DNA of 43,178 nucleotides, taken from NCBI GenBank assembly GCA_964502775.1, contig CAZCYE010000003.1, forward strand, positions 1 to 43,178, in the 5' to 3' direction. Made by a program: the position numbers and the translations under genes. Source of the stretch: an uncultured Bifidobacteriaceae bacterium (GTDB lineage: Bacteria > Actinomycetota > Acidimicrobiia > IMCC26256 > PALSA-555). The notes below the pieces were generated by a model, which searched no databases, was not told the origin of the DNA, and saw only the letters and a list, made by a program, of their open reading frames with translations. Shown piece by piece: positions 3,606-28,813 of the stretch (position 1 is the first letter of the stretch; the number at the start of each line of letters is the position of its first letter).

Positions 3606-4190
3606 CTATGCAACCTGGGCCCGGTGGCTCCGGAGGTTGGGGATGCGCCGAGTGATCGTCATGAGCAGCCTGGCGACCCAGGTTCCGGTCTGGACGTGGA
3701 TCACGAGGAACGCCCCCAGCACGATCAGGACGTCGCCGATCGAGTACACGTTGGCCAGCGGGAGCCACGACGGTACAGCGAAGATGTCGCCGAGGAATGC
3801 GACGCTCGCGTCGTTGAGTGCAGTGGAGTTCTCGAACCCGTGGCCCACCGAGATGCCCGCCGCGCTCAGGGCCGAGCGGGACGCCGGCATCACGCCGTCG
3901 TTGGCGGCGATCGCCACGAGGTTCAGCACCCCACCGGCGAGCATCGTGAACCGCCACGGAATGCCCGAGTTGGCGAGGAGCCAGCCCAGCACCAGCACGT
4001 AGGTCGTCATGTGCAGTCCACGGGCGATCGAGCTGTCGCCGGCCACGATCGAGATGATCACGACCTGCACCACGAGCGCGCCCAGGACCACGCCCGTGCC
4101 GCGGAGCCGGATCTCGCCCAGGCGCCGCAGCCGGCCCCCCGTGAGGGGGACGCTGGCCAGCGCGACGCCGACGAGCAGGACCATTAGCAT
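3606..4190 (-). CDS. DUF5317-family polytopic membrane protein
   Basis: The 194-aa product has about 5 hydrophobic helices. The motifs ANDGVMPAS..LSAAGIS, FLGDIF and VYSIGDVLIVLG match my recollection of the DUF5317 signature (NGGxMPV...LGD...SIGD). The SD GGGAG lies 5 nt upstream of ATG 4190. Confidence 0.72.
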   Translation of the reverse strand: MLMVLLVGVALASVPLTGGRLRRLGEIRLRGTGVVLGALVVQVVIISIVAGDSSIARGLHMTTYVLVLGWLLANSGIPWRFTMLAGGVLNLVAIAANDGVMPASRSALSAAGISVGHGFENSTALNDASVAFLGDIFAVPSWLPLANVYSIGDVLIVLGAFLVIHVQTGTWVARLLMTITRRIPNLRSHRAQVA

Positions 4191-4404
4191 CAGGGCTCCC
4201 GGGAGGAATGGTTCGTGGGCTCCTTGGACACCGTTGTCGGCAATCGCTTGCGGGCCCTTGAGCGTGCCGCCGTCCCGTGGGCGTTTCGCGCAGGATGTCC
4301 GATTTGCTCGAGCTCCCCGAATCCCCCTTCAGCGGGCTCGGCTCGGCGCCGATACCTCCGGTCTGCGCCCGAATGGGCGCACAGAGCACCAGAGGAGCAG
4401 TTGG

Positions 4405-4494
4405 ATGAGAGCTCGTCTTCTGCGCATCAGCGTTGCCGCCGCCACGCTCGTCTCTCTCGTCGCCGTTCTCGGCGCCGGGATCAAGTGGCGCTGA
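4405..4494 (+). CDS. candidate 29-aa membrane micro-protein (MRARLLRISVAAATLVSLVAVLGAGIKWR)
   Basis: Below the size cut-off of the ORF track. ATG 4405 is preceded by AGGAG with a 7-nt spacer. The peptide has a basic N-terminus, an 18-residue hydrophobic core, GAG and a basic C-terminus. It lies 110 nt upstream of the GGDEF-EAL gene and is collinear, with the same length, with a second ORF at 25623..25712. Confidence 0.35.
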   Translation: MRARLLRISVAAATLVSLVAVLGAGIKWR

Positions 4495-4603
4495 CGACCA
4501 TTCGTGAGGGGGCCGTTCCGGGGCGAGAGCCTCGGGGCGGCCTCCTTTCTTTTTCACGGTCGGCGTTCTCACCGCGGGCTCGTTCCCATGGGGGGCGGCA
4601 TCC

Positions 4604-6643
4604 ATGACGGCCGAGGCCGGGACCGGCCGGGCGAGGCTGCTGCACGGCTACCTGACAGCGGTCATCGTCGTCGGCTTGGCCGACATCGCGGTCGCGGTGA
4701 GGTTCGAGGGTCCGGTCGTCCCTGACAGCAACGTCGGCCGCTACGCGGTCTTCGCGGCCATCATCGTGATCGGCGAGCTGTTCCCGGTGACCTTCAAGTT
4801 CCGCAACGAGCACCACGACGTCACCACGTCCACATCGTTCGCGTTCGCGGTGCTCCTGATGTTCGGCCTTGCCCCCACGTTGCTGGCGCAGTCGATCGCC
4901 TCGATCGCCTCTGACGTGCGCCAACGCAAGACATGGTGGCGGGCGTTGTTCAACGTGTCCCAGTACGCCTTGGCCTGGACGGCATGCTGGGCAGTGCTGC
5001 GAGTGAGCGGGGTCACCCGCTTCGACACGGCCGAGTCGTTCACGAGCGACGGGGCCGTGGGGCTCGTGGCGGCGGCGGTGGTCTTCATGGTCGTGAACTA
5101 CGTCTTCGTTGCGATCGCCGTTGCCCTCGCCCAGCGCTACGTCGTCGCCAGGAATTTCGTCTCGAGTGCTCGGATCGATCTGGCCATCTCGGCGGTGTTG
5201 TTCGCCATGGCGCCGGTCGTGGTGATCATCGGGGAGCAGAATCTCGCGCTCGTCCCCTTGTTGCTCGCGCCGCTCGCCGCCGTCTACCAGAGCGCCCGTA
5301 CCTCGATGGAGAAGCTGCATCAGTCCATGCACGACTCGCTCACCAACCTCCCCAACCGTCTCTACTTCGAGGAGCGCGTGCGGCAGGCGATTGACGAGCG
5401 GCCGGATGCAAAGCTCGATGTGTTGATCGTGAATATCGACAGCTTCTCAGAGATCAACAACACGTTGGGCCATCACGTGGGTGACATTCTCATCGTCCAG
5501 GTCGCCGATCGTCTCCGGAGTGCAGTGCCCGGCGACGCCGTGGTCTCACGCCTGGGCAGCGATGAGTACGCGATCTCGTTGCCGGCCGGCTCCGGTCACG
5601 ACGCGCGTGGCCTTGCCGACCTCATCCAGCGCTCGCTCGAGGCGCCGTTCGTGCTCGACGAGGTCACCTTCGAGGTGGGTGCGAGCATCGGGTCCGCCTC
5701 GTACCCCCTTCACGGGAACGACGTGGACACGTTGATCCGGCGAGCGGATTCGGCCATGTACGAAGCCAAGGAACGCCGGAGCGGCTTCGAGTGGTTCCGC
5801 CCCGAGCGAGACCACCGCGACGCCCGGCGCCTGACCGTGCTCGCCGAGCTGCGCCAAGGCATCGACGAAGGCCAGCTCGTCCTGCACTTCCAGCCCAAGG
5901 CCGAGTTGCCGACCGGGCGTATCCTCGGGGCCGAGGCGCTCGTGCGCTGGAACCATCCCGCGCTCGGTCTCCTCGGCCCGGACTCCTTCGTGCCCCTTGC
6001 CGAGCCCACGGGTCTCATCAACTCCTTGACGTTGCACGTGCTGGAGCAGGCACTGGAACAGTGCCACCGGTGGTCCGACGAGAAGCGGGATCTGCGGGTG
6101 TCGGTGAACGTGTCCGTGCGCAACCTGTACGACGAGCGGTTCGTGTTCGACGTCGACAGGATCCTCGAGCGCACGGGTGTCGATCCCAGTCGCCTCACGC
6201 TCGAGATCACTGAGAGCACGATGATGGCCGATCCGACGCGCCCGATCGCGGCGCTGGCGCAACTCAGTCTCCGAGGAGTCCAGATCGCCGTCGACGACTT
6301 CGGCACCGGATACTCGTCGCTCGCATACCTGCGCCGGCTCCCGGTGACCGAGATCAAGATCGACAAGTCGTTCGTGCTCGGCATGCTGGATTCGCCCGAC
6401 GACGCCACGATCGTCCGCTCGACGATCGATCTCGTACGCAACCTTGGGCTCATCGCGGTGGCCGAAGGCGTGGAGCGCGAGGAGGTCTGGAACGCGCTGA
6501 TCGAGCTGGGCTGTCACCGCGCCCAGGGCCACTACCTCACTCGGCCGCTCGCCGCCGATGCGTTCACGCACTGGCTCGATCGCTACGACCCGCGGGCGCC
6601 CGGTCGGCAGGCGCCCGCGTCGCGGGGGCTGCGCGCGGTCTGA
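4604..6643 (+). CDS. membrane-bound GGDEF(degenerate)-EAL protein, probable c-di-GMP phosphodiesterase
   Basis: The N-terminal ~235 aa are polytopic. The GGDEF domain (DSLTNLPNR, GHHVGD) has GSDEY in place of GGDEF. The EAL domain carries EALVRW, NVS, EITE, DDFGTGYSSL, KIDKSF, AEGVE and AQG. Confidence 0.9.
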   Translation: MTAEAGTGRARLLHGYLTAVIVVGLADIAVAVRFEGPVVPDSNVGRYAVFAAIIVIGELFPVTFKFRNEHHDVTTSTSFAFAVLLMFGLAPTLLAQSIASIASDVRQRKTWWRALFNVSQYALAWTACWAVLRVSGVTRFDTAESFTSDGAVGLVAAAVVFMVVNYVFVAIAVALAQRYVVARNFVSSARIDLAISAVLFAMAPVVVIIGEQNLALVPLLLAPLAAVYQSARTSMEKLHQSMHDSLTNLPNRLYFEERVRQAIDERPDAKLDVLIVNIDSFSEINNTLGHHVGDILIVQVADRLRSAVPGDAVVSRLGSDEYAISLPAGSGHDARGLADLIQRSLEAPFVLDEVTFEVGASIGSASYPLHGNDVDTLIRRADSAMYEAKERRSGFEWFRPERDHRDARRLTVLAELRQGIDEGQLVLHFQPKAELPTGRILGAEALVRWNHPALGLLGPDSFVPLAEPTGLINSLTLHVLEQALEQCHRWSDEKRDLRVSVNVSVRNLYDERFVFDVDRILERTGVDPSRLTLEITESTMMADPTRPIAALAQLSLRGVQIAVDDFGTGYSSLAYLRRLPVTEIKIDKSFVLGMLDSPDDATIVRSTIDLVRNLGLIAVAEGVEREEVWNALIELGCHRAQGHYLTRPLAADAFTHWLDRYDPRAPGRQAPASRGLRAV

Positions 6644-6691: not shown

Positions 6692-7156
6692 TCAATCGGC
6701 TCCGGAGATGTCGACCTGGTAGGCGTCGTAGACGAGCTCGGCGCCTTGGTGGCGGTGCACGAGGATCCTCCGCACGAGATCCAGGCACTGGTCACGCGCG
6801 GTCTCCACCCCCGCCTCGTCGTGGACGGCGCCGAGCGTTGCGGCCAGTGCCTCGCCGGCTGCCGTGAGCGCTTCGTGATCCTCGATGAGCATCTCGATCG
6901 CGTGCTGGAGCCGCGGGGCCTCCTCGGTCACCTGGGCGAACAGGCCACCGGAGCCCTCGGTCTCCGCCACGTGTGCGGAGAGGACCTCGCGAAGCTCCTC
7001 GACCGGCTCGGCGAGGAGCGCCGCCCAGCGCTCGGGAGCGTCGGCCGCGGGTGTGCTCAGCGCGCGCTCCACGTCGAGCACCGCTTCGTACAGGCGCTCG
7101 CGGCGGATCCGCACCGCGTCGAGCGCGTCCCGATTCCGCTCATGGATGTCGCTCAC
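6692..7156 (-). CDS. hypothetical acidic all-helical protein
   Basis: 154-aa ORF with a GTG start and strong third-position G+C, rich in A/E/L and divergent from cydA. No family recognised; a hemerythrin-like helical bundle is only a guess. Confidence 0.55.
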   Translation of the reverse strand: MSDIHERNRDALDAVRIRRERLYEAVLDVERALSTPAADAPERWAALLAEPVEELREVLSAHVAETEGSGGLFAQVTEEAPRLQHAIEMLIEDHEALTAAGEALAATLGAVHDEAGVETARDQCLDLVRRILVHRHQGAELVYDAYQVDISGAD

Positions 7157-7291: not shown

Positions 7292-8710
7292 TTGCTGGCG
7301 ACCTATGCGATCCTGGCCGCGGAGCCTCCCCAGCTGTTGCCGGCGCGCACCCAGATGGCCTGGACCCTGGGCGTGCACATCGTGCTGGTGCCGATGGGGG
7401 TCGCGTTCACGTTCCTGACCCTGGTGGCCAACTGGCGAGGGCTGCGCCGCGACGATGCCGAGGCGCTGCGACTGGCGCAGCGCTGGTCCAAGGTGGCCGC
7501 AGTGCTGTTCGCCGTGGGGGCGGTCACGGGAACGGTGCTGTCGTTCGAGCTGGGCCTGCTGTGGCCCCGGCTGATGGGGCGATTCGGCGAAGCGTTCGGG
7601 CTTCCGTTCATGATCGAGGGTCTCTTCTTCTTCATCGAGGCCGTGTTCATCGCGATCTACATCTACGGATGGAAGCGCATGCGGCCGTGGACGCACTTCT
7701 GGGCCGGTGTTCCCATCGTGATCGCCGGGATCGGGGGGACGCTCTCGGTCGTGGCGGCCAACGCCTGGATGAACGACCCCGGTGGGTTCTCGGTCCGTGG
7801 TGGCAAGATCGTCGACGTCGACCCGGTCGACGTCATCTTCAACGGCGCGTTCTGGCACGAGTCGATCCACATGCTGCTGGCGGCCTATCTCGTTGCCGGA
7901 TTCCTCGTGGCTTCGGTGTACGCCTCCGCGATGCGGCGCGGCCGCACGAATCGCTATCACCGGTTGGGGTTCATGATCCCGTTCACGGTCGCGGCCATCG
8001 TCATGCCGCTCCAGTTCGTCTCGGGGGATCTCTCGGCGCGCTGGGTGCGCGACAACCAGCCGGTCAAGTTCGCCGCGATGGAGCTCGTCCCCGAGACCGC
8101 TCGCGACGTTCCCGAGATCATCGGTGGCTATTACGCCGACGGCAAGGTGAAGGGCCCGAGGATCTCGATCCCAGGCGTTGCGTCGCTGCTGTCGGGGTTC
8201 TCGATCGACACCGAGATCCAGGGGTTCAACTCGGTGCCGGAGGACGAGCGCCCACCGGTGAGCATCGTGCACCTCGCGTGGAATGTGATGATCGGGCTGG
8301 GCTCGGCCCTGTTGGGCCTCGCGGTGTGGTTCGCGGTGCTGCGCTGGCGACGCCGCGACGTGGCGGATGCTCGGTGGTTCCTGCGCGGCGCGTCGGTGGC
8401 CGGGATCGCGTCGGTCGTTGCCATGTGGGCCGGGTGGACGGTGACCGAGGTCGGCCGCCAACCGTGGGTCGTCCAGGGTCTCCTGCGCACCGAGGATGCC
8501 GTGACCCGCGCCGATGCCGACGGCCTGTGGGTCAGCCTCGGCCTGGTGGTGGTGCTGTACGTCGCCATCGCGACCGCCACCGTGCTCGTGCTCAGGGGCA
8601 TGGCCCGGCGCTGGCGGCGCGCCGACGAGGGTGAGATCGCCGAGGAGCTGGTGCCCTACGGTCCTGCTCGCACGATGCTCGTGGACGAGGCGGGGGACTC
8701 GGCGCCGTGA
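7292..8710 (+). CDS. cydA: cytochrome bd ubiquinol oxidase subunit I
   Basis: Track ORF 6746..8710 is trimmed to TTG 7292, which has GGGAGAG upstream; GTG 7265 is an alternative. The N-terminus LPARTQMAWTLGVHIVLVP is CydA-like, with a periplasmic Q-loop region and 9 TM segments, and it is followed by cydB with a GTGA overlap. Confidence 0.88.
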   Translation: MLATYAILAAEPPQLLPARTQMAWTLGVHIVLVPMGVAFTFLTLVANWRGLRRDDAEALRLAQRWSKVAAVLFAVGAVTGTVLSFELGLLWPRLMGRFGEAFGLPFMIEGLFFFIEAVFIAIYIYGWKRMRPWTHFWAGVPIVIAGIGGTLSVVAANAWMNDPGGFSVRGGKIVDVDPVDVIFNGAFWHESIHMLLAAYLVAGFLVASVYASAMRRGRTNRYHRLGFMIPFTVAAIVMPLQFVSGDLSARWVRDNQPVKFAAMELVPETARDVPEIIGGYYADGKVKGPRISIPGVASLLSGFSIDTEIQGFNSVPEDERPPVSIVHLAWNVMIGLGSALLGLAVWFAVLRWRRRDVADARWFLRGASVAGIASVVAMWAGWTVTEVGRQPWVVQGLLRTEDAVTRADADGLWVSLGLVVVLYVAIATATVLVLRGMARRWRRADEGEIAEELVPYGPARTMLVDEAGDSAP

Positions 8711-9720
8711 GCGATGCCGTCGCCGTCGTGCTGTGGATCGGCGTCGTCGCGTACGCCGTGTTCGGAGGCGCCGACTTTGGTGCGGGTTTCTGGGACCTCG
8801 TCGCGGGCGGAGCCCGCCGCGGGCGGCGTACACGCGCGCTGATCGACTCGTCGCTCGCGCCGGTGTGGGAGGCCAACCACGTCTGGCTCATCTTCTGCTT
8901 GGTGGTGCTGTGGACGGGGTTCCCGTCGGCGTTCGCGGCCATCGCTCAGGCGCTGTACGTGCCGCTGACCATCGCCGCGCTGGGAATCGTCGTGCGGGGA
9001 ACGGGATTCGCCTTCGGCAAGGTGGTGGCGCGCGTCCCCCACCAACGGGTGTACGGCGCTGCCTTCGCGGTGTCGTCGGTGATCACCCCGTTCTTCCTCG
9101 GCACCGTTGCGGGCGCGATCGCCTCGGGGCGCGTTCCGCCGCGCGGCACCGCCGGTTCCGACGCGGTGGATGCTGCCGACGTGTGGGTCAATCCCACGTC
9201 GATGCTCGGCGGCTGTCTCGCCGTCGCCGTCTGCGCGTACTTGGCTGCGGTGTTCCTCGTGGACGAGGCCCGTCGCCGGCACGCCGATGACCTGGTGCGC
9301 ATGTTCCGCCGTCGTGCCATCGGCGCGGGGATGGCCGCGGGGGTGGTGGCGCTCGTGGGCATCTGGGTCCTGCGCGACGATTCCCCTCGGCTCTTCGGTC
9401 ATCTCACCGATCGCGCGTTGCCCCTCGTGGTCCTGTCCGGCGTGTTCGGCCTGGCCGCGCTCGTCGTGCTGTTCCGAGGCTCACCTCGCGGGGCCCGAGC
9501 GCTCGCTGCGGGAGCGGTGGCGGCGGTGGTGGGTGGCTGGGGCGTCGCCCAGTACCCGAATCTCCTCGGGACTCGGGTGTCCCTGGAGGCAGCCGCCGCG
9601 CCCGATGCCACCCTGGGCGCGGTCCTCGGGGTTGCCGTCGCGGCCGCGCTCACCGTGGTGCCCGCGCTGGGGTATCTCTATGTCCTGAGTCAGCGCGGCG
9701 ACGTGGACGCGAGCGCATGA
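8707..9720 (+). CDS. cydB: cytochrome bd ubiquinol oxidase subunit II
   Basis: The N-terminus VVLWIGVVAYAVFGGADFGAGFWDL is the classic CydB signature. The protein is polytopic and its start overlaps the cydA stop. Confidence 0.9.
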   Translation: MSDAVAVVLWIGVVAYAVFGGADFGAGFWDLVAGGARRGRRTRALIDSSLAPVWEANHVWLIFCLVVLWTGFPSAFAAIAQALYVPLTIAALGIVVRGTGFAFGKVVARVPHQRVYGAAFAVSSVITPFFLGTVAGAIASGRVPPRGTAGSDAVDAADVWVNPTSMLGGCLAVAVCAYLAAVFLVDEARRRHADDLVRMFRRRAIGAGMAAGVVALVGIWVLRDDSPRLFGHLTDRALPLVVLSGVFGLAALVVLFRGSPRGARALAAGAVAAVVGGWGVAQYPNLLGTRVSLEAAAAPDATLGAVLGVAVAAALTVVPALGYLYVLSQRGDVDASA

Positions 9721-10652
9721 CGGACCGGGTGCCGGACCGGGTGCCGGACCGGGTGCGATGGGTGCGTCCCCGGTCGGCGTCATCCCCCGTAGTCTCGGAG
9801 GCATCCGAGCCTTCGGCGGCTCGACACCGCGGGGGTGAAGCATTGGGCGACACCACGAGCTCAGGGGTGGGCGTGGTCGCCACGTTCCCGATCGGTGAGC
9901 TCGTCGAGCGCACCGGGATCCCGGCGAGCACCATCCACCACTATCGCCAGCTCGGCCTGCTCCCGCCACCGGTGCGCGTTGCGCCCAACCGCTTCTTGTA
10001 CGGCGAGCGTCACGTCGAGGCACTTCGTCTCGTGCGCATGCTGCGAGAGCGGCGCCACCTCCCGCTGGAGGCGATCCGAGAGGTGGTTCCCGATCTCCTC
10101 GGAGGCGGCGAGGAAGGGCTGCCGGCCGAGACCTGGGACGAGATGGTCGATCCCGAGGCCGGCGGCGCCGATGTTCGTGCCGCCATCCTCGAGGCCGCGC
10201 GCGCCGCGTTCGCCAAGCATGGCTATGCCGCGGTCAGCGTCGGCGACGTCGCCGAGGCCACCGGCGTGGGCAAGGGGACGGTGTACCGACACTTCCGGTC
10301 CAAGGACGATCTCTTCCAGGCCGCGGCCGAGTCGTCGGGCGCCCGCACCATCGTCGCCTTCCGCGGCGTGCTCGCCGGTGGAGGCCACGGGGTGGGGGTG
10401 GAGCACGCGGCGGCGATCCTCGCCGATGCCCTGGCTCCCGAGGTCACGTTGCTGCTCGAGTTCGTGACCCGGGCGCTCCAGCGCCAGACCGGGCTCGCCG
10501 AGGAGGCCAGCGCCATCTTCGAGGCCTTGGCCGACCACGTCGGAGAGACGATGGGGGACCCTGACGTCGGGGAGCGGGTGGTTCACGCCGCGATGGCCCG
10601 GGCCGTGCTGATCGCTCTCGACGCCCAGACCGACGCCGCCTCCACTCCCTGA
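9717..10652 (+). CDS. transcriptional regulator with a MerR-type HTH followed by a TetR-type HTH and a TetR-like C-terminal domain
   Basis: The MerR signature is FPIGELVERTGIPASTIHHYRQLGLLPPP...RFLYGERHVEALRLVRMLRE. The TetR signature is ILEAARAAFAKHGYAAVSVGDVAEATGVGKGTVYRHFRSKDDLF. ATG 9717 overlaps the cydB stop (ATGA). Alternative starts GTG 9867/9873 would remove a 50-aa R/S/P-rich extension. Confidence 0.75.
   Translation: MTDRVPDRVPDRVRWVRPRSASSPVVSEASEPSAARHRGGEALGDTTSSGVGVVATFPIGELVERTGIPASTIHHYRQLGLLPPPVRVAPNRFLYGERHVEALRLVRMLRERRHLPLEAIREVVPDLLGGGEEGLPAETWDEMVDPEAGGADVRAAILEAARAAFAKHGYAAVSVGDVAEATGVGKGTVYRHFRSKDDLFQAAAESSGARTIVAFRGVLAGGGHGVGVEHAAAILADALAPEVTLLLEFVTRALQRQTGLAEEASAIFEALADHVGETMGDPDVGERVVHAAMARAVLIALDAQTDAASTP
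9721..9756. repeat. perfect 12-bp tandem repeat x3 (CGGACCGGGTGC)
   Basis: Read directly from the sequence. It encodes (DRVP) repeats if the regulator ORF starts at 9717. Confidence 0.95.
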
Positions 10653-10866
10653 GCACCTTCGGCGATCGCCGGTCGCTTGACCCCCCGGGGCTCACGCGTA
10701 CAACATGCTGACTACCTAGTCCGACTCTCGTAGGCGGGTTCGGGTGCTGTTACGGGCCTGGCGCACCGACGGCAGCGAGCCGGGGGCATGCAGACGCCGC
10801 CCGGAGCCGGCGCCGCGGAGCGGCCCGGGCTCCGAGAGTGGGCGTACCGAGAAATGTGGGGAACTC

Positions 10867-11733
10867 GTGGAGGATGTGGAGGGGACGCGTGCGGTCGCCG
10901 ATCGCGTCTCGGAGCGGGCCCCGAGCCGGGCCGGCCACGAGAACTTCCCGGTGGCGTTGCGCGTGCTCCCGGCCGCCGTCCGCCGGCACCTGCTGGCGAT
11001 CTACGGATTTGCGCGCTTGGTCGACGACCTCGGCGACGAGGCGCCGGGCGACCGGGGCGCGCTGCTCGACTGGCTCGACCACGAGCTCGACCTGGCGTTC
11101 ACCGGCACACCGACCAACCCGGTGATGCAGCGGCTCGCCGCGAGCATCCGCGAGTGCCCGTTGCCCGAGGAGCCGTTCCGGCGCCTCGTCGAGGCCAACC
11201 GGCGTGACCAGCGGGTCGATCGTTACCGCACGTGGGCCGATCTGCGCGAGTACTGCTCGTACTCGGCCGATCCCGTCGGGCGACTCGTGCTGGCCGTGTT
11301 CGGAGCGGGCACGCCCGAGCGCATCGCCTGGTCCGACGACGTGTGCACCGGCCTCCAGCTCGTGGAGCATCTCCAGGATGTGGCCGAGGATCTCGCCCGC
11401 GGCCGCGTGTACCTGCCGCTCGAGGATCTCGAGCGCTTCGGGTGCGACCAACGCGAGCTCTCGGCGGCCCACGCGGGGGCGGCGCTGGGCGCGGTGGTGC
11501 GGTTCGAGGTGGTCCGCGCGCGCGAGCTGTTGCGCTCCGGCGTGACCTTGGCCGCGAGCCTGCGCGGTCGTGCCCGCCTTGCGATCTCCGGGTTCACCGG
11601 CGGCGGTCTGGCTGCGCTCGACGCGATCGAGCGAGCCGGCTACGACGTGCTCGGTGTCACGTGCTCAGTCCGACGTTTCGGAGCGTTGCGCCGAATGGCC
11701 GGCGTCGTCGCGAGCGCCTCGAGGCGGCCATGA
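10867..11733 (+). CDS. hpnC: squalene synthase HpnC-type (hydroxysqualene synthase), SQS/PSY family
   Basis: Carries ENFPVALRVLPAAVRRHLLAIYGFARLVDDLGDE (first Asp-rich motif) and LQDVAEDLARGRVYLPLEDL. The start is uncertain (GTG 10867 or 10876; the track ORF begins at 10744). It is followed by hpnD with an ATGA overlap. Confidence 0.82.
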   Translation: MEDVEGTRAVADRVSERAPSRAGHENFPVALRVLPAAVRRHLLAIYGFARLVDDLGDEAPGDRGALLDWLDHELDLAFTGTPTNPVMQRLAASIRECPLPEEPFRRLVEANRRDQRVDRYRTWADLREYCSYSADPVGRLVLAVFGAGTPERIAWSDDVCTGLQLVEHLQDVAEDLARGRVYLPLEDLERFGCDQRELSAAHAGAALGAVVRFEVVRARELLRSGVTLAASLRGRARLAISGFTGGGLAALDAIERAGYDVLGVTCSVRRFGALRRMAGVVASASRRP

Positions 11734-12635
11734 GCGTGTCGGTGTCGGTGAGCACGGCGTACGCCCGGTGCGAGGAGATCACCCGTACCGAGGCCCGGAA
11801 CTTCGCGTACGGGATTCGGCTCCTGCCCCGGCCGAAGCGTCAGGCGATGTCAGCGGTCTACGCGCTCGCGCGTCGCATCGACGACATTGGCGATGGCCCC
11901 GAATCGGCCGAGGTCAAGCTCGAGCACCTCGCCACCGTACGCGCCGACGTGCACACCCTGGCCGGCCGAGGGTTTCCGGGCGACGACCCGGTGATGGTCG
12001 CGCTCGCTGATGCGACGACGCGCTTTGCGATTCCCCTGGATGCGTTCGAGGACCTCGTAGCGGGGTGCGAGCGCGATGCGACGGGTGGGCAGTACGCGAG
12101 CTTCGACGAGCTGGTCTCGTACTGCCGCTTGGTCGCGGGTTCGATCGGTCGACTCTCGTTGGGGGTCTTCGGTTCCACGGATCCGCCGCGGGCGTCTGAG
12201 TTGGCCGACGACCTCGGGGTGGCGCTGCAGCTCACCAACATCCTGCGCGACGTGGTCGAGGATCGCGAGATGGGGCGTGTGTACCTCCCGGCGGAGGATC
12301 TGCAGCGTTTCGGGTGCGCACCGGATCTGGGTGGTCCGGATCTGGGTGGTCCGGATCTGGGTGGTCCGGATCTGGGTGGTCCGGGGCACGCGCTCAGCGA
12401 CCTCGTGGCCTTCGAGGCCGAGCGGGCGCGGGCGTGGTTCGCGCGCGGGCTGGGGCTCCTGGATCTGCTCGACCGCCGCAGCCGTGCCTGTGTCGCGGCG
12501 ATGGCCGGGATCTACCGACGTGTCCTGGCCCGAATTGAAGCGGACCCCGCATCGGTGCTCGAGCGTCGAGTGTCGCTCCCCACCTGGGAGAAGGCCTGGG
12601 TCGCGGCCCGAAGCCTCGCGGGAGCACGAGCGTGA
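11730..12635 (+). CDS. hpnD: presqualene diphosphate synthase HpnD-type, SQS/PSY family
   Basis: ATG 11730 overlaps the hpnC stop. Carries ARNFAYGIRLLPRPKRQAMSAVYALARRIDDIGD and LRDVVEDREMGRVYLPAEDL. It contains an in-frame (PDLGG)x4 insertion. Confidence 0.85.
   Translation: MSVSVSVSTAYARCEEITRTEARNFAYGIRLLPRPKRQAMSAVYALARRIDDIGDGPESAEVKLEHLATVRADVHTLAGRGFPGDDPVMVALADATTRFAIPLDAFEDLVAGCERDATGGQYASFDELVSYCRLVAGSIGRLSLGVFGSTDPPRASELADDLGVALQLTNILRDVVEDREMGRVYLPAEDLQRFGCAPDLGGPDLGGPDLGGPDLGGPGHALSDLVAFEAERARAWFARGLGLLDLLDRRSRACVAAMAGIYRRVLARIEADPASVLERRVSLPTWEKAWVAARSLAGARA
12321..12380. repeat. perfect 15-bp tandem repeat x4 (CCGGATCTGGGTGGT) inside hpnD
   Basis: Read directly. There are four identical units plus a partial CCGG, in frame, encoding PDLGGPDLGGPDLGGPDLGG. 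Confidence 0.97.
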
Positions 12636-14035
12636 GCGTCCCGCCGACCCGCGTCGTGGTCATCGGTGGCGGACTGGCGGGCCTCGCCGCGGGGCTCGCC
12701 TGCGCCGATGCCGGAGCGCGGGTGACCGTGCTGGAGCGTCGGCCCCGTCTGGGCGGGGCCACCTGGTCGTTCAGTCGCAACGGCGCCTGGTTCGACAACG
12801 GACAGCACGTGTTCTTGCGTTGCTGCACGTCGTACCGAGCATTCCTCGAGCGCCTCGGTGTCGCCGATCGCGTGGTGCTCCAGCCCCGCCTCTCGGTCCC
12901 GGTCGTCTCACCCTCGGGACGGGTCGCGTGGCTACGGCGCGGGCACGGCCCCGCTCCGGTCCATCTCGCGCGGTCACTCGCGCGGTTCTGTCACCTGAGT
13001 CGGGGCGACCGGGTGCGGGTGGCGCGCGCCGCCTGGGCATTGCGCCGGTTGGACCTCGATGATCCCGCGCTCGACTCGCTCACGTTCGGGGAATGGCTGG
13101 CTCGTCAGCACCAGAGTGATGACGCGGTGGCGTCGTTCTGGGACCTGGTGGCGCTGCCCACGCTCAACGTAGAGGCGGCCGAGGCCTCACTGTCGCTGGC
13201 GGCGATGGTGTTCAAGACCGGGTTGCTCACCCGGGCCGACGCCGCCGACCTGGGCTGGTCGCGCGTGCCCCTCGGTCAGCTCCACGGTGATGCGGCGGCT
13301 CGCGCGCTTGAGCGGGCCGGAGCCAGCGTCCTGACCGCCACGGCGGTAGGGGGGATCGAAGTGGTCGACGGCGTCGTGACCGGAGTCAGGGCCGAGAGTG
13401 CGCACTTCGACGCCGACGCGGTCATCCTCGCGGTGGGCCATGACGCCGCGGCGGACTTGCTGCCCCGGGACGCGGTGGCCGATCCGGAGCGCCTCCACGA
13501 GTTGGGCACCTCTCCCATCGTGAACGTGCACTTGGTGTTCGACCGCAAGGTCATCAACCATCCCGTCGCCGCGGCCGTGGACTCCCCGGTCCAGTGGGTG
13601 TTCGACCGGACCGACTCGTCGGGGATCGACTCCGGCCAGTGCATCGCGATCTCGCTGTCGGCCGCCGACGAGGATCTCGCGCGCCCCAGCCCCGAGCTGG
13701 TACAGCGCTACTCGGCCGAGCTCGCGCGACTGTTCCCCGCCGTGCGCAGTGCGCGCCTCGTCGACAGCATCGTCACACGCGAGCGCGCGGCCACGTTTCG
13801 CGGTCGTCCCGGAACTCGGTGCCTGCGGCCCGGCCCGCAGACCGCCGTTGGCGGTCTGTACCTCGCCGGTGCGTGGACCGACACCGGCTGGCCGGCCACG
13901 ATGGAGGGCGCGGTCCGCAGCGGGCACGCGGCTGCGGCGGCCGCCGTCGCAACCAACTCCACCGATGGCTCAACCACCTCCGCCGCTGGTCGGGTGCCAC
14001 GACCCCGACGGCTCGATGCGGAGGTCGTGGCGTGA
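12632..14035 (+). CDS. hpnE: FAD-dependent hydroxysqualene dehydroxylase HpnE-type (amine oxidase family)
   Basis: Has the dinucleotide-binding motif VVVIGGGLAGLAAGLACADAGARVTVLERRPRLGG. It sits after hpnC and hpnD, and GTG 12632 overlaps the hpnD stop. Confidence 0.85.
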   Translation: MSVPPTRVVVIGGGLAGLAAGLACADAGARVTVLERRPRLGGATWSFSRNGAWFDNGQHVFLRCCTSYRAFLERLGVADRVVLQPRLSVPVVSPSGRVAWLRRGHGPAPVHLARSLARFCHLSRGDRVRVARAAWALRRLDLDDPALDSLTFGEWLARQHQSDDAVASFWDLVALPTLNVEAAEASLSLAAMVFKTGLLTRADAADLGWSRVPLGQLHGDAAARALERAGASVLTATAVGGIEVVDGVVTGVRAESAHFDADAVILAVGHDAAADLLPRDAVADPERLHELGTSPIVNVHLVFDRKVINHPVAAAVDSPVQWVFDRTDSSGIDSGQCIAISLSAADEDLARPSPELVQRYSAELARLFPAVRSARLVDSIVTRERAATFRGRPGTRCLRPGPQTAVGGLYLAGAWTDTGWPATMEGAVRSGHAAAAAAVATNSTDGSTTSAAGRVPRPRRLDAEVVA

Positions 14036-15045
14036 TCCGGTCCCTGCCCTCGTCGCTGGACCGCGCGCGTGACTACGCGGAGCCGGCGTTGCGTGACGCA
14101 GTGCGCCGGCTCAATCCCGAGATCGTCCCGGTCATCCAATACCACCTGGGCTGGGCCGACGCCGACGGCAACGAGATTCCCGGAGGGGGGGGAAAGGGGA
14201 TCCGGCCTGCGCTCGCGATTCTCTCGGCGGAAGCGACGGGCACCCTCGCCTCGGTCGGCGTGCCGGGAGCAGTCGCGGTGGAGCTCGTGCACAACTTCTC
14301 GCTGCTGCACGACGACGTGATCGATGGCGACCGGGAGCGCCGACACCGGCCCACCGTGTGGGCCCTCTACGGCGTTGGCGAGGCGATCATCGCGGGCGAC
14401 GCCCTGCTCACGCTCGCGGTTCGAGTGCTGCTCGAGTCGGGCACGATCGCGGCCACCCGCGCGGCCTCGTCGCTGGTGCGGGCCACCGACTCCATGATCG
14501 CCGGGCAGGCGGTCGACATGGCGCTCGAGTCACGGCTCGACGTCGACCTCGACGAGTGCCTCGACATGGCCGCGGGCAAGACCGGGGCCCTGCTGGCGTG
14601 CGCCGCCTCGATTGGCGCGTTGCTGGCGGATGCCGATCAGCGGGTGGTCGAGTCGCTGGCCGACTTCGGTCGCAACCTCGGGCTCGCGTTCCAGGCCGTC
14701 GACGATCTGCTGGGCATCTGGGGTCGCCCCGAGATCACGGGCAAGCCGGTGTGGAACGACCTCCGCCAACAGAAGAAGTCGCTCCCGGTGGTGTTCGCCC
14801 TCACGCGGGGCAACGGCAAGTCCGAGGAGCTGCGCGAGATCCTCACCAATGGCTCCATCGAGGAGCGCGACGTGGTGCGAGCGGCCCGCCTGGTCGAGCG
14901 GTGCGGAGGCCGGGAGCTCACGGAGTCGGTCGCCCAGCGGCATCTCGATCTGGCCCTGGCCGCGCTCGAGCGTGAGGCGCTCGAGCCCTCGGCGCACGAC
15001 GAGCTCGTCGAGATCGCCCGGTTCGTGACGACGCGGGAGCTCTGA
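14032..15045 (+). CDS. polyprenyl diphosphate synthase (FPP/GGPP synthase family)
   Basis: GTG 14032 overlaps the hpnE stop. Asp-rich motifs are LLHDDVIDGD and FQAVDDLLGIWG. Confidence 0.85.
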   Translation: MIRSLPSSLDRARDYAEPALRDAVRRLNPEIVPVIQYHLGWADADGNEIPGGGGKGIRPALAILSAEATGTLASVGVPGAVAVELVHNFSLLHDDVIDGDRERRHRPTVWALYGVGEAIIAGDALLTLAVRVLLESGTIAATRAASSLVRATDSMIAGQAVDMALESRLDVDLDECLDMAAGKTGALLACAASIGALLADADQRVVESLADFGRNLGLAFQAVDDLLGIWGRPEITGKPVWNDLRQQKKSLPVVFALTRGNGKSEELREILTNGSIEERDVVRAARLVERCGGRELTESVAQRHLDLALAALEREALEPSAHDELVEIARFVTTREL

Positions 15046-15046
15046 G

Positions 15047-16960
15047 ATGACGCAGTCACTCGATGCCAGCGTCATGACCGCGTGCGCCCGGGCGCGCGAT
15101 CACCTGCTGGGACTCCAGCACCCGAACGGCTGGTGGAAGGGCGAGCTCGAGACCAACGTCACGATGGACGCCGAGGATCTCCTGCTCCGGCACTTCCTGG
15201 GTGTCTCGACGCCCGACGTCGTCGAGGAGACCGCGACCTGGATCCGGTCCCAGCAGCGGTCCGACGGCACGTGGGCGATCTACTACGAGGGTCCGGGCGA
15301 GCTGTCGACCACGGTCGAGGCGTACACCGCATTGCGCCTCGCGGGCGACGCCGTCGATTCCGACCACATGGTCAAGGCCGCCGAGTTCGTTCGTGATGCC
15401 GGCGGTCTCGAGCGGGCCCGCGTCTTCACTCGCCTGTGGCTCGCCCTCGTGGGGCAGTGGTCGTGGGACGACCTCCCCGTGATCCCGCCCGAGCTCGTCC
15501 TGCTCCCGGCGTGGGCGCCGGTGAGCATCTACGACTTCGGCTGCTGGGCCCGCCAGACCGTCGTCGCCCTCACGGTCGTGTCCTCGTACCGGCCGGTGCG
15601 ACCCCTGCCCTTCGATCTCGACGAGCTGCGCACGCACGCCCCGCCCTCGCCCCGCGCCTCTCTTCGCGAACCCGAGGGCCGGTGGCAGGAGCTCGACCGG
15701 TGGCTGCATCGATACCAGCGCACGCCGTTGCGCCCGCTCCGCCGCGCCGCGCTCGCCGAGGCCGAGCGTTGGATCGTCGCCCGTCAGGAGGCGGACGGGT
15801 GCTGGGGCGGGATCCAGCCCGCATGGGTCTATTCGCTGTTGGCGCTGCACCTCCGCGGCTACCCGTTCGATCATCCGGTGATGCGATCCGGGCTCGAGGG
15901 CCTCGACAGCTTCACGATCCGTGACGAACGGGGACGCCGGCTCGAGGCCTGTCAATCGCCGGTCTGGGACACCGCGCTCGCGGTGATCGCGCTCGTTGAT
16001 GCCGGCCTCGACCCGACCGACCCGGCACTGGTGGGGGCCGCGGACTGGCTCCTCGACGAGGAGGTGCGGGTCCGCGGTGACTGGAGCGTGCGCCGCCCCG
16101 ATCTCGACCCGGGTGGGTGGGCGTTCGAGTTCGCGAACGTCAACTATCCCGACGTCGATGACACCGCCGAGGTTGCGCTCGCACTGCGCCTGGTTGGCCA
16201 TCCGGATCCCGGCCGGGTCGACGCCGCGCTGGCGAGGGGAGTGACGTGGGTGCGGGGCATGCGCTGCCGCGACGGCGCCTGGGGTGCCTTCGACGCCGAC
16301 AACACCGCGACGTGGCCGGCCAACCTGCCGTTCTGCGACTTCGGCGCGGTCGTCGACCCGCCGACGGCCGACGTCACCGCTCATGTCGTGGAGATGCTGG
16401 CCGAGTGCGGGGCCGTCGGCGACGACGGCACGGTACCGGCAGCGATCGAGTGGCTTCGTCGGGCCCAGGAGCCCGATGGATCGTGGTGGGGACGCTGGGG
16501 CGCGAACCACATCTACGGCACGGGTGCCGTCCTTCCTGCGCTGGTGTCAGCCGGCATGGCGCGCGACGCCCCCGAGATCCGTCGAGCAGTGAGTTGGCTC
16601 GTGGATCACCAGAATGCCGACGGGGGATGGGGCGAGGACCCACGGTCGTACCGCGAGGCCGATTGGGTCGCGCGCGGCGCGTCGACGGCATCCCAGACCG
16701 CGTGGGCGCTCCTGGCGATGATCGCCGCGGGCGAGCACGACCACCCCGCGACCGCCCGAGCCCTGCGATGGCTGGTGGAGCACCAACGGCCCGACGGCAC
16801 ATGGGACGAGCCGTGGTTCACCGGCACCGGATTTCCCGGCGACTTCTCGATCAACTACCACCTGTACCGCCTCACGTATCCACTGATGGCGCTCGGGCGG
16901 TATCTGCGGTGTCGCGCGGACGAATCCGGTGCGGCCCACCGAGCAGGGGGGACTCGATGA
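15047..16960 (+). CDS. shc: squalene-hopene cyclase
   Basis: The 637-aa product has repeated QW motifs (QxxDGxW/GGWG) and the catalytic DVDDTAEV motif. Confidence 0.95.
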   Translation: MTQSLDASVMTACARARDHLLGLQHPNGWWKGELETNVTMDAEDLLLRHFLGVSTPDVVEETATWIRSQQRSDGTWAIYYEGPGELSTTVEAYTALRLAGDAVDSDHMVKAAEFVRDAGGLERARVFTRLWLALVGQWSWDDLPVIPPELVLLPAWAPVSIYDFGCWARQTVVALTVVSSYRPVRPLPFDLDELRTHAPPSPRASLREPEGRWQELDRWLHRYQRTPLRPLRRAALAEAERWIVARQEADGCWGGIQPAWVYSLLALHLRGYPFDHPVMRSGLEGLDSFTIRDERGRRLEACQSPVWDTALAVIALVDAGLDPTDPALVGAADWLLDEEVRVRGDWSVRRPDLDPGGWAFEFANVNYPDVDDTAEVALALRLVGHPDPGRVDAALARGVTWVRGMRCRDGAWGAFDADNTATWPANLPFCDFGAVVDPPTADVTAHVVEMLAECGAVGDDGTVPAAIEWLRRAQEPDGSWWGRWGANHIYGTGAVLPALVSAGMARDAPEIRRAVSWLVDHQNADGGWGEDPRSYREADWVARGASTASQTAWALLAMIAAGEHDHPATARALRWLVEHQRPDGTWDEPWFTGTGFPGDFSINYHLYRLTYPLMALGRYLRCRADESGAAHRAGGTR

Positions 16961-18456
16961 CGCTGCTGGCGCTCACGCCGCTCCGGGTCGAGGCGCGCGC
17001 CGCGCGCCGCGGCACCTCGCGCGCGCGGGTGGAACGCACGGGGATGGGGCCACGTCGTGCGACGAGAGCCGCTACTCGGCTTGGCGGCGAGGCGGACTGG
17101 GTCCGTGGGGTCGCGATCCTGGGTGTCGGCGGCGCCGTCGATCCGGGCATCGCCGTTGGCGATCTCGTGGTGGCCGATGAGGTGCGCGGACCCGGAGGCT
17201 CGGTCGTCCAGCTCCGGGGCGCGGGCATCGTGGCTCGGGAGCTGCGCCGGGCCGGACTCGAGACCCATGTCGGTGCCGTGGGGTCGTTCGAGCGTGTGGT
17301 GCGTAACGGCGAGCGTGCGCGTCACCATGCCGACGGCCTCCTGGCCGTCGACACCGAGTCGGCGTGGCTCACCAACGTCACGACCTGCCGCCCGCTCGCG
17401 GTGGTCCGAGCGATCGTCGACACACCGACGCGGCCCCTCCTGTCGCCCCGCTCGGTGAGTGGCGGGGTCAGGGCACTGCGCAGCGTGCGGGCCGCCGCCG
17501 GCGCGTTGGAGCGGTGGGCCGCCGCCTGTGGGCCCCGCACCGTGCTCCTCGCTGGCCCGCGCTCGTTCTGTGCGGGCGTCGAGCGGGCGATCGATGTGGT
17601 GGACCGCGCGCTCGACCGCTTCGGAGGTCCGATCTTCGTGCGGCGCCAGATCGTGCACAACACGCATGTGGTCAGGGGACTCGAGGAGCGAGGCGCCCTC
17701 TTCGTCGAAGAGCTCGACGACGTGCCCGAGGGCGCGATCGTCGTGTTGGCCGCGCACGGTGTGGCACCGGAGGTCCACGCTCAGGCGGCGGATCGAGGGC
17801 TGCAGGTGATCGATGCGACCTGTCCCCTGGTCGCCAAGGTGCATACCGAGGCCCGCAGGTTCGCGGCCCAGGGCTACGAGATCGTCCTGATCGGCCACGA
17901 CGACCACGAGGAGGTCGAGGCCACCCGCGGTGAGGCACCGGGCCAGGTGCACGTCATCACCGAGCCGGACCAGGTCGGCCAGCTCGAGATTCGCGATCCT
18001 CAGCGGGTGGCGTACCTGACCCAGACCACCCTCGCCGTGGAGACCACCCAAGCGGTGATCGATGCGCTCCGGCTACGCTTCCCGACCATCGTCGGGCCCA
18101 AGGGCGACGACATCTGCTACGCCACCCAGAACCGTCAGGACGCGGTACGGACGGTCGCGCGGGAGGCTGACGTGGTGCTCGTGGTGGGATCCCCCAACTC
18201 TTCGAACGCCAATCGTCTCGCCGAGGTGGCGGAGCGGGAAGGTTGCCGCGCCTACCTTCTTGAGGACCACTCCGAGTTGGACCTGGGGTGGCTACGGTCG
18301 GCCGACGTGGTCGGCGTGACCGCAGGGGCATCAGCCCCCGAGGTCTTGGTGCACGAGCTGGTCGAAGTGCTGGGTGGCCTGGGCCCGGTGCGGGTGGAGG
18401 ATCGTATGGTGACGACCGAGAAGGTCCAGTTCGCCCTACCGGCGGAGGTGCGCTGA
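16957..18456 (+). CDS. ispH: fusion protein: HpnG-like phosphorylase (PNP/UDP family) N-domain + IspH (HMBPP reductase) C-domain
   Basis: ATG 16957 overlaps the shc stop. The N-terminal ~190 aa carry AVDTES and VVRAIVDTP, as in the hopanoid-associated phosphorylase. The same frame continues without a stop into VLLAGPRSFCAGVERAI, DATCPLVAKVH and DDICYATQNRQ, the three IspH Fe-S cysteines. Confidence 0.8.
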   Translation: MTLLALTPLRVEARAARRGTSRARVERTGMGPRRATRAATRLGGEADWVRGVAILGVGGAVDPGIAVGDLVVADEVRGPGGSVVQLRGAGIVARELRRAGLETHVGAVGSFERVVRNGERARHHADGLLAVDTESAWLTNVTTCRPLAVVRAIVDTPTRPLLSPRSVSGGVRALRSVRAAAGALERWAAACGPRTVLLAGPRSFCAGVERAIDVVDRALDRFGGPIFVRRQIVHNTHVVRGLEERGALFVEELDDVPEGAIVVLAAHGVAPEVHAQAADRGLQVIDATCPLVAKVHTEARRFAAQGYEIVLIGHDDHEEVEATRGEAPGQVHVITEPDQVGQLEIRDPQRVAYLTQTTLAVETTQAVIDALRLRFPTIVGPKGDDICYATQNRQDAVRTVAREADVVLVVGSPNSSNANRLAEVAEREGCRAYLLEDHSELDLGWLRSADVVGVTAGASAPEVLVHELVEVLGGLGPVRVEDRMVTTEKVQFALPAEVR

Positions 18457-19464
18457 ATGTCCGTGTCCATGCGCCAGCAGATGCGGGTGGGCTCGTATCT
18501 GGTGCGCCAACGGCTGAAGGGCACCAAGCGATTCCCGCTGATCGTGGAGCTCGAGCCGCTGTTCGCGTGCAACCTCGAGTGTGCGGGTTGCGGCAAGATC
18601 CAGTACCCGACGGACATTCTGCGCCAACGGGTGAGCGTGGAAGATGCGGTGGGCGCCATCGAGGAGTCCGGGGCACCGATGGTGTCGATCGCCGGTGGCG
18701 AGCCCCTGCTGCACCCCGACATCGAGCGCATGGTGGACGAGCTCATCAAGCGCAAGCGCTTCGTCTACCTGTGCACCAACGGCGTGCTGATGCGACGCAA
18801 GCTCGATCGTTTCACGCCCTCGCCGTACTTCGCCTGGGCTGTGCACGTGGACGGGATGCGGGAGCGCCACGACGAGTCGGTATGCCGCGATGGCGTCTTC
18901 GACGAGGCGGTGGAAGCGATCAAGGAGGCGATGGCGCGTGGTTTCCGCGTCACCACCAACACGACGTTCTTCTCCAACGATTCACCGCAGACCGTGAGGG
19001 ACGTGCTCGACTTCCTCAACGACGAGCTCCATGTCGACGCGATGATGATCTCCCCCGGCTACGCCTACGAGAAGGCGCCGGACCAGGAGCACTTCCTCCC
19101 CGTCGAGGAGACCCAGAAGATGTTCCGAGACGCGTTCGGCGAAGGCCGGCGCAAGCGGTGGCGTCTCAACCACACGCCGTTGTTCCTCGACTTCCTGGAA
19201 GGCAAGGTCGACTACGAGTGCACGGCATGGGGAATCCCCAGCTACTCCGTGTTCGGATGGCAGCGGCCGTGCTACCTGATGTCGGACGGCTACGCGTCGA
19301 CGTACCGGGAGCTCGTGGACACGACGGACTGGAGCCGATACGGGCGGGGTCGGGATCCGCGATGCGCCAACTGCATGGCGCACTGCGGCTACGAGCCCAC
19401 GGCCGTCCTCGCCACCACACGGTCGCTCAAGGAGTCGATCCGCGCCACGATCTCCACGCGCTGA
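18457..19464 (+). CDS. hpnH: radical SAM adenosyl-hopene transferase
   Basis: Has the CxxxCxxC motif LFACNLECAGCGKIQYP, is 335 aa long, and sits in hopanoid-cluster context. Confidence 0.88.
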   Translation: MSVSMRQQMRVGSYLVRQRLKGTKRFPLIVELEPLFACNLECAGCGKIQYPTDILRQRVSVEDAVGAIEESGAPMVSIAGGEPLLHPDIERMVDELIKRKRFVYLCTNGVLMRRKLDRFTPSPYFAWAVHVDGMRERHDESVCRDGVFDEAVEAIKEAMARGFRVTTNTTFFSNDSPQTVRDVLDFLNDELHVDAMMISPGYAYEKAPDQEHFLPVEETQKMFRDAFGEGRRKRWRLNHTPLFLDFLEGKVDYECTAWGIPSYSVFGWQRPCYLMSDGYASTYRELVDTTDWSRYGRGRDPRCANCMAHCGYEPTAVLATTRSLKESIRATISTR

Positions 19465-19486
19465 GCGGAACCCCCAGCCGTCCGTC

Positions 19487-25622: not shown

Positions 25623-25712
25623 GTGAAGAAGGTGATTGCCCGTCTCGCGCTTATCGGGTCAAGCATCGCTGCGATCGTTCTCGCCGGTGGTGCTGGCAAG
25701 GGACTGCGCTAG
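25623..25712 (+). CDS. candidate 29-aa membrane micro-protein (MKKVIARLALIGSSIAAIVLAGGAGKGLR)
   Basis: Below the track cut-off. GTG 25623 is preceded by GGGGGGA with a 6-nt spacer. It has the same length and architecture as ORF 4405..4494 and lies 66 nt upstream of the HD-GYP-like gene. Confidence 0.35.
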   Translation: MKKVIARLALIGSSIAAIVLAGGAGKGLR

Positions 25713-25777
25713 TAGTTCACATCCTGACGAAATGCTCTGAGGTCCTGCCCGCTCCGTCCTCTACTTCCCGAGATGTG

Positions 25778-28269: not shown

Positions 28270-28813
28270 CCGCGCGCCGACTCTTGGTGCGCCGGCTCTG
28301 GAAGTACGCGAGCTCGCACACGCCGACGCCCAGGACCAGGTCGCCGAACGAGATCAACATGTCGAAGGGCTCCGGTAGGAGGATCTTGTCGCCGAGGATG
28401 CCGAGCAGGTCCTCCTCGCTCGCCTGACGGTGCTTGACCGTCTGCTCCACCGGCTTGCGGATCCGGTTGCCCTGCGCGTCGTTGCCGATCGGCTTGGTGG
28501 GCATTCCCTGGTTGAGCCCGATCACCAGCGCGTTCATCGCGATTCCGATGGCGATGATCCCGAAGCCTCGTGCGAAGACGTTGGCCAGGCAGAAGGCGAG
28601 GATCAGGGCGTACGACGCCATCAGCGCGGCAAAGCCGATGGTCTCGATCTGATCTTTGGGGATGTCGACGTATTCGAGGGCGATCTGGATGCCAAAGCCG
28701 ACGAGGAGCATCCAAGGTGCCATCACCCGCACGCGAGCCAGTCGGGCGAAGCTTCCACGCGTCAGGATCACGACGAGAGCGGCCGCCGCGATCGTGAAGA
28801 CGAACAGCCACAC
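28259..28813 (-). CDS. DUF5317-family polytopic membrane protein (second copy)
   Basis: GTG start. The N-terminus WLFVFTIAAAALVVILTRGSFARLARVRV parallels that of the 3606..4190 product. Motifs are LNQGMPTKP, ILGDKIL and ISFGDLVLGVG. Its 3' end overlaps the convergent gene by 11 nt. Confidence 0.68.
   Translation of the reverse strand: MWLFVFTIAAAALVVILTRGSFARLARVRVMAPWMLLVGFGIQIALEYVDIPKDQIETIGFAALMASYALILAFCLANVFARGFGIIAIGIAMNALVIGLNQGMPTKPIGNDAQGNRIRKPVEQTVKHRQASEEDLLGILGDKILLPEPFDMLISFGDLVLGVGVCELAYFQSRRTKSRRAVSQ

Follow-up and report, generated by a model that had tools for sequence, protein, structure and literature searches.

Why should a gene of the DUF5317 family stand, twice within one stretch of DNA, beside an open reading frame (ORF) of only 29 codons and a gene for a membrane-bound signalling protein? 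The stretch, hereafter the window, is a 43,178-nucleotide sequence with 69% G+C (GenBank assembly GCA_964502775.1, contig CAZCYE010000003.1) from an uncultured Bifidobacteriaceae bacterium placed by GTDB in the Acidimicrobiia. A sequence-only reading of the window had pointed out the repeated arrangement and judged that two copies were unlikely to be coincidental, and comparative locus counts now support that judgement. Across genomes the three genes are kept adjacent through rearrangement, duplication and output-domain exchange. With a rough probability of 55%, we infer that they encode a three-part membrane sensory module, made up of a MASE9 sensor domain, a DUF5317 protein with five helices and a micropeptide, some 30 residues long, with one membrane pass.

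The first copy of the arrangement, module A, consists of the following features.

3606-4190, minus strand: DUF5317_A, 194 amino acids (PF17248, E = 1.9e-21)
4392-4397, plus strand: Shine-Dalgarno-like GAGGAG, 7 nt 5′ of the micropeptide A ATG (read directly from the sequence)
4405-4494, plus strand: micropeptide A ORF, 29 codons, MRARLLRISVAAATLVSLVAVLGAGIKWR (direct reading; hidden Markov model (HMM) in related loci)
4506-4556, plus strand: GC-rich, terminator-like hairpin and then UUUCUUUUU, separating the micropeptide A ORF from the GGDEF-EAL gene
4604-6643, plus strand: GGDEF-EAL protein, 679 amino acids (Pfam scan)
4604-5308, plus strand: MASE9-like polytopic domain, residues 1-235 of the GGDEF-EAL protein (PF20972, 22.9 bits; profile match to the product of the gene at 25778)
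5327-5779, plus strand: GGDEF domain with the degenerate motif GSDEY (PF00990, E = 2.8e-36)
5846-6547, plus strand: EAL domain (PF00563, E = 1.9e-72, 243.9 bits)

As first described, the DUF5317 gene is divergent from a 29-codon ORF that has its own ribosome-binding site and is followed by the GGDEF-EAL gene; the spacer between the two larger genes (4191-4603) is there as well, with a length of 413 bp rather than the 414 bp given earlier. Both DUF5317 copies of the window belong to the family, scoring 77.1 bits (DUF5317_A) and 74.0 bits (DUF5317_B) against a PF17248 gathering cut-off of 25 bits. The output half of the enzyme had been called a degenerate GGDEF domain with EAL output, and both the Pfam scan and motif reading agree. 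Its GGDEF motif reads RLGSDEY where 55 of 70 orthologues keep an intact GGDEF, and it departs from the GG[D/E]EF pattern; the EAL motifs EALVR, N, EITE, DDFGTGYSS, KIDKSF, EGVE and QG can all be read in the translation. The EAL domain is predicted to be an active phosphodiesterase for cyclic dimeric GMP (c-di-GMP) and, since the GGDEF motif is degenerate and the EAL set complete, the window protein is predicted to act as a phosphodiesterase only.

Evidence for the three-part reading comes from the surroundings of DUF5317 in other genomes. One genome per species was scanned with a DUF5317 alignment, and 80 loci were selected by DUF5317 similarity only, nearly all of them from Thermoleophilia/Solirubrobacterales, Acidimicrobiia and other Actinomycetota; their six-frame ORFs were searched with the domains of the window and the layouts were then classified. 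A MASE9 gene lies directly beside DUF5317 in 70 of the 80 loci, either divergent, as in the window (36 loci), or co-directional and upstream with its stop abutting the DUF5317 start (33 loci), or downstream (1 locus). Three further loci hold a truncated EAL or GGDEF-EAL fragment at a contig edge, with the MASE9 part off the contig, and one locus was too short for judgement. Only about seven other GGDEF, EAL or HD genes were found across about 1 Mb of flanks. The neighbours of DUF5317, whose randomness had been put in question, are non-random, with a MASE9 signalling gene as the usual immediate neighbour. In the operon form, independent gene calls list a 32-amino-acid gene followed by GGDEF-EAL and, overlapping by 4 nt, DUF5317; this stop/start overlap fits translational coupling. 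Two relatives picked via their MASE9 domain also have DUF5317 and a 29-amino-acid gene.

The output domain is not the same in every locus. The same peptide and DUF5317 genes flank MASE9-HisKA-HATPase proteins in three loci (L044, L052 and L058, one with a GAF domain), and the second module of the window pairs them with a MASE9-HD output. Because such histidine-kinase and HD-type versions occur, the partner is best taken to be MASE9 and not c-di-GMP enzymes as such. The link once proposed between DUF5317 and GGDEF, EAL or HD-GYP proteins thus holds as adjacency and needs amending as to the partner. The peptide also stays beside DUF5317 where there is no adjacent MASE9 gene, as in L007, L032, L036 and L053.

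With an iterated HMM search, 67 of the 80 loci proved to encode the peptide; its ORF invariably shares the strand of the MASE9 gene and precedes that gene, typically by 20-180 bp. In the consensus, a start rich in K/R (often MKARLYR) leads into roughly 18 hydrophobic residues, the motif G-A-[G/P]-x-K-[W/F/L] and zero to six more residues, with the G and the A invariant and the K present in 64 of 69 unique sequences. Micropeptide A ends in the conserved G-A-G-x-K-W and is predicted to cross the membrane once. Among related peptide genes, differences at codon positions 1, 2 and 3 number 561, 283 and 1084, single-base codon changes are synonymous in 761 cases versus non-synonymous in 339, and G+C at third codon positions (GC3) is 0.83. 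Judged by these substitution patterns, the small ORF is a conserved coding gene under purifying selection. Public genomes, for example that of Solirubrobacter pauli, annotate the peptide as a hypothetical protein, and it matches no family in Pfam or NCBIfam. Nine loci carry two copies, mostly in tandem 5′ of the MASE9 gene (L020, L022, L034, L041, L051, L054, L058, L062 and L076); in L051 and L062 one of the two has a longer C-terminal tail.

The sequence-only reading had described the N-terminal domain of the GGDEF-EAL protein from a signature shared with the products of the genes at 25778, 27094 and 29732, and the module so described already has a name. Galperin and Chou (bioRxiv 10.1101/2021.11.05.467447) defined it, under the name MASE9, as a membrane sensor of eight segments with a hairpin inside the membrane. 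Their preprint places it on HD-GYP and GGDEF-EAL proteins, gives it about eight helices (two of these short) and conserved Asn/Ser and aromatic positions, and proposes a ligand site within the membrane. In profile comparison the N-terminal domains point to this one family, Pfam MASE9 (PF20972), with the window GGDEF-EAL protein at its edge, and not to unrelated ones. Against a gathering cut-off of 24.3 bits, the window GGDEF-EAL protein scores 22.9, just under it, and the 25778 product 25.6, above it. Of three GGDEF-EAL orthologues, L042 passes (29.6 bits) and L001 and L015 fall below (20.2 and 17.5 bits), three histidine-kinase versions score 28-29 bits, and precomputed MASE9 matches exist for three close relatives of the window protein (P0291, P0294 and P0295).

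The GGDEF-EAL N-terminus matches the 25778 product with a BLASTP E of 2e-6, and a profile from 69 orthologous GGDEF-EAL N-termini matches it at E = 1e-10, with the signature that had been picked out by eye (a Glu, then a Ser/Thr stretch; E58 ... T74-S-T-S in the window protein) aligned between the two. From the 25778 product, phmmer leads on to residues 59-225 of the 29732 product (E = 2e-15) and, over the full length, to the 27094 product (E = 9e-8). Directly, BLASTP gave no match between the GGDEF-EAL N-terminus and the 29732 product, the comparison with the 27094 product gave a non-significant E = 0.12 (about 2e-4 in a five-sequence search), and a Pfam scan gave no PF20972 match for either protein. 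The proposed common domain therefore stands, with the 27094 and 29732 products joined to it only through 25778, and all four products can be called MASE9-like, partly by transitivity.

The asparagines N117 and N165 do not vary among nine aligned sequences, the 25778 and 29732 products included. An AlphaFold2 (AF2) model of the domain (window 4604-5323) has eight helices, two of them short (H77-85 and H89-106), as in the family description, at medium confidence (mean predicted local distance difference test score, pLDDT, of 69). A homology search with the MASE9 domain alone returned six matches because of word-index limits on hydrophobic sequence, hence the shallow alignment and the medium confidence of the model. 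The outputs found on MASE9 are GGDEF-EAL, HD/HD_5, HisKA-HATPase and GAF-HisKA-HATPase, a promiscuous set of combinations.

DUF5317 comprises 5,904 representative clusters at E <= 1e-3, and no paper containing the term 'DUF5317' was found in the literature. Alignment gives Q42, Y64, N74, N90, N97, M101-P102, G134-D135, S150 and G152-D153 as invariant. The AF2 model of DUF5317_A (pLDDT 88.8) shows five long helices with a partly beta-stranded loop (residues 97-150) between helices 4 and 5, and the conserved N97, M101-P102, D135 and D153 lie in or around this loop. Arginines are concentrated in the first loop, on the N-terminal side, and in the C-terminal tail. All 10 of 10 long family members tested have DUF5317 at the N-terminus of an MFS_3/MFS_1 transporter. 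Among the 80 loci, DUF5317-MFS_3 fusions occur in L033 (858-2870) and L039 (5971-7911), and 14 Solirubrobacterales loci have an MFS_3 gene directly at the DUF5317 stop (L003, L009, L018, L019, L024, L037, L042, L050, L059, L070, L071, L074, L078 and L079); no MFS gene adjoins either copy in the window. An N-out, C-in topology is suggested by the two Arg-rich segments together with the N-terminal fusion to MFS proteins; the conserved loop would then be extracellular and share its side of the membrane with the C-terminal motif of the peptide.

The second copy of the arrangement, module B, is also real, with its own DUF5317 gene and its own 29-codon ORF, and its genes follow one another in this order.

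25623-25712, plus strand: micropeptide B ORF, 29 codons, MKKVIARLALIGSSIAAIVLAGGAGKGLR, 5′ of the gene at 25778
25778-27097, plus strand: MASE9-HD/HD_5 protein, 439 amino acids from the ATG at 25778 (MASE9, 25.6 bits; HD_5, E = 2.4e-22)
27094-28269, plus strand: paralogue of the 25778 product; N-terminus in the membrane, HD-type domain degenerate (phmmer match to the 25778 product; HD_5 weak, E = 6.6e-4)
28259-28813, minus strand: DUF5317_B, convergent with the gene at 27094 (PF17248, E = 1.7e-20)
29019-29735, plus strand: extracytoplasmic-function (ECF) sigma factor with a fused zf-HC2 anti-sigma segment; divergent from DUF5317_B (Pfam scan; conserved synteny)
29732-31279, plus strand: 515-amino-acid polytopic protein, MASE9-like at residues 59-225 (phmmer match to the 25778 product, E = 2e-15)

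Module B is a paralogue of module A, and its layout, peptide B included, is conserved in Acidimicrobiia. DUF5317_B is 26% identical to DUF5317_A (E = 1e-7) and its orthologues keep the same neighbours; the start of the 27094 gene overlaps the stop of the 25778 gene, and this synteny too is kept in orthologous loci. Orthologues of peptide B end in ...LAGGASRIWR/K in L081-L084, and one of them is called as a gene. A TTG start at 25550 was dropped for the HD protein in favour of the ATG at 25778, because its orthologues have 437-443 amino acids and the peptide B ORF fills the upstream stretch. The same protein had been taken for an HD-GYP enzyme, a class that requires an HHE..DG.GYP motif besides the HD one. 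Its HD and HD_5 scores exceed the cut-offs and it has an RSYR motif, but the aligned region is RAHEHVSVELMRR, with no legible GYP, and the name does not fit. Whether this product and its more degenerate 27094 paralogue act on c-di-GMP is uncertain as far as their motifs tell. The 29732 product has no Pfam match and no recognisable output domain.

Two further observations belong to module B. The stop of the ECF sigma/anti-sigma gene overlaps the start of the 29732 gene, and in Acidimicrobiia (L082-L085) both genes show conserved synteny with DUF5317_B. Between the peptide B stop and the HD gene start lies a stretch of about 18 nt, GAGGTCCTGCCCnnTCCG (about 25733-25755, plus strand), which is kept in four genomes (the window, L081, L082 and L084) despite diverged flanking intergenic DNA.

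How might the three products work together? We propose that the K/R-rich N-terminus of the peptide stays in the cytoplasm on insertion, so that the G-A-[G/P]-x-K-W end would reach the outer face of the membrane, where the Asn/Asp-rich loop of DUF5317 (N97, D135, D153) would also lie. Peptide and DUF5317 would then bind the MASE9 helices and set or relay their signalling state, which in the window would control the EAL phosphodiesterase and hence the breakdown of c-di-GMP. Since DUF5317 repeatedly occurs fused or next to MFS_3 transporters, the cue may be a small molecule that is exported or associated with the membrane.

Several points weigh against this three-part reading. Six of the 80 loci have no MASE9 gene adjacent to DUF5317, and the B-type peptide of the window itself has lost the Trp (GAGKGLR). 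DUF5317 shows no similarity to solved structures or characterised families in a Foldseek search of the PDB or in a PDB profile search, its best Foldseek match being no better than E = 4.6. The loci come from one phylum, except for one metagenome-assembled genome labelled delta proteobacterium, and they are the 80 nearest matches to DUF5317_A in a family of 5,904 clusters, so part of the signal is inherited synteny.

DUF5317 might, alone or with MFS_3, be a local target of the MASE9 enzyme rather than its input partner. Local signalling between c-di-GMP enzymes and their targets is an established concept, and a protein fused or adjacent to MFS_3 transporters would suit the role. The histidine-kinase and HD-type versions, however, keep both peptide and DUF5317, which would be unexpected for a c-di-GMP-specific target, and the five-helix protein has almost no cytoplasmic mass for nucleotide binding; on balance we think such a role unlikely. 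In a bolder proposal, DUF5317 would be an unrecognised membrane hydrolase that uses its Asp pair to trim the peptide at G-A-[G/P], and the product or the trimmed helix would be the MASE9 ligand; the loop would be autocrine, and MFS_3 could serve optionally for export. A processing site could be marked by G-A (invariant) and K-W (nearly so), which in every case come within zero to six residues of the stop, and the outer face as predicted holds the invariant D135, D153 and N97; the DUF5317-MFS fusion also recalls the peptidase-containing exporters of double-glycine peptides. We nevertheless consider peptide trimming improbable, given that DUF5317 shows no peptidase similarity (hhalign against LspA gave 2%, and Foldseek and PDB sequence searches were empty), that three to six released residues with K-W conserved among them would make a strange signal, and that a helix cap with an interfacial Lys-Trp anchor accounts for the motif without cleavage.

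The small ORF could instead be a regulatory leader (an upstream ORF or attenuator) of the sensor gene with a functionless product. In the window a strong hairpin with a U-run does separate it from the GGDEF-EAL gene (4506-4547, then UUUCUUUUU; -44.7 kcal/mol, z = -5.8). Of 77 orthologous peptide genes, just 8 have a comparable terminator-like element; the peptide sequence is conserved and synonymous changes are in excess; the ORF is kept next to DUF5317 even where no MASE9 gene follows; and tandem duplicates occur, all of which leaves the leader explanation very little room. Just as hard to sustain is gene order inherited without functional coupling, which the origin of the loci in related classes of one phylum would favour, as adjacency outlasts orientation change, overlapping-codon operon fusion, output swap and A/B duplication while the surrounding genes differ.

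Membrane sensors with small or polytopic partners thought to act on the transmembrane region are known from MgrB-PhoQ, SafA-PhoQ, LiaF-LiaS and YycH/YycI-WalK. The trio resembles them in that the genes for a membrane sensor and for small or polytopic membrane proteins go together; the sequences are unrelated, and here the sensor is mostly a c-di-GMP enzyme with two putative accessory proteins. Membrane sensing assisted by small membrane proteins is thus a known kind of arrangement, and we rate the trio as a further variant of it. MASE9, GGDEF-EAL proteins and the DUF5317 family are already catalogued; no description of the peptide family or of the triad was found in the searchable literature.

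A looser parallel concerns the fold of the sensor. In Foldseek, the top matches of the MASE9 AF2 model are S components of energy-coupling factor (ECF) transporters, namely CbiM, RibU, ThiT, FolT and BioY, and CbiM needs a small membrane protein, CbiN. With E values of 0.08-1, target-normalised TM-scores of at most 0.60 and a model of pLDDT 69, these matches are weak and serve as a lead only, and no ECF T or A components are encoded near the trio of the window. The likeness to LspA is superficial and confined to motifs (N..G..MP, FLGD and P.ANVFS.GD..IVLG in DUF5317; VVDF and WP.FN.AD..I.vG in LspA). Tested as an LspA-like aspartyl peptidase with an LspA query that was verified against 5DIR and 6RYO, DUF5317 reached an hhalign probability of 2.1%, Foldseek and PDB profile searches were empty, and the peptide lacks a lipobox Cys; the comparison was rejected.

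The closest relatives of the sensor itself are MASE9 proteins such as Thermotoga maritima TM1467 and Streptomyces venezuelae HdgA, which share the polytopic N-terminal sensor and have HD-type or GGDEF-EAL outputs. They differ in that the accessible description by Galperin and Chou mentions no partner genes, where here there are a dedicated micropeptide and DUF5317, and does not list the histidine-kinase output found here; the GGDEF-EAL copy of the window differs further in its score just short of the Pfam threshold. By the same account MASE9 is widespread, its signal is unknown and it offers essentially no experimental handle (bioRxiv 10.1101/2021.11.05.467447).

The trio would give MASE9, a family of about 5,900 clusters without a function and a micropeptide without a family a shared context that can be tested, and would provide the MASE9 domain with its first concrete partners. 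Candidate residues are G-A-x-x-K-W in the peptide, N97, D135 and D153 in DUF5317 and E58, N117 and N165 in MASE9. A c-di-GMP enzyme that appears to depend on a dedicated micropeptide would be an added case of its kind. If DUF5317 did trim the peptide, the result would be a self-contained peptide signalling loop controlling c-di-GMP enzymes and histidine kinases in Actinomycetota, coupled in some lineages to an MFS exporter.

Some smaller observations concern the spacer of module A and its flank. An Rfam search of the window returned no RNA element, no sigma-70-like promoter was found in the 413-bp spacer, and the only palindrome that a repeat search gave there is weak. As a conserved attenuator the hairpin was rejected on its count among orthologous peptide genes; from its position it could raise expression of the peptide over that of the enzyme. 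Convergent with the GGDEF-EAL gene is a 154-amino-acid ORF (6692-7156, minus strand) with high GC3 and no match in Pfam or NCBIfam. Further downstream, an ORF of 311 amino acids (9717-10652, plus strand) combines MerR-type and TetR-type helix-turn-helix domains in one frame. Cytochrome bd genes (about 7300-9720) lie directly 5′ of it, and a hopanoid biosynthesis cluster lies 3′ (10744-20530), with genes for a squalene/phytoene synthase, an amine oxidase, a polyprenyl synthetase, a squalene-hopene cyclase, a LytB fusion and a radical SAM protein with DUF3463.

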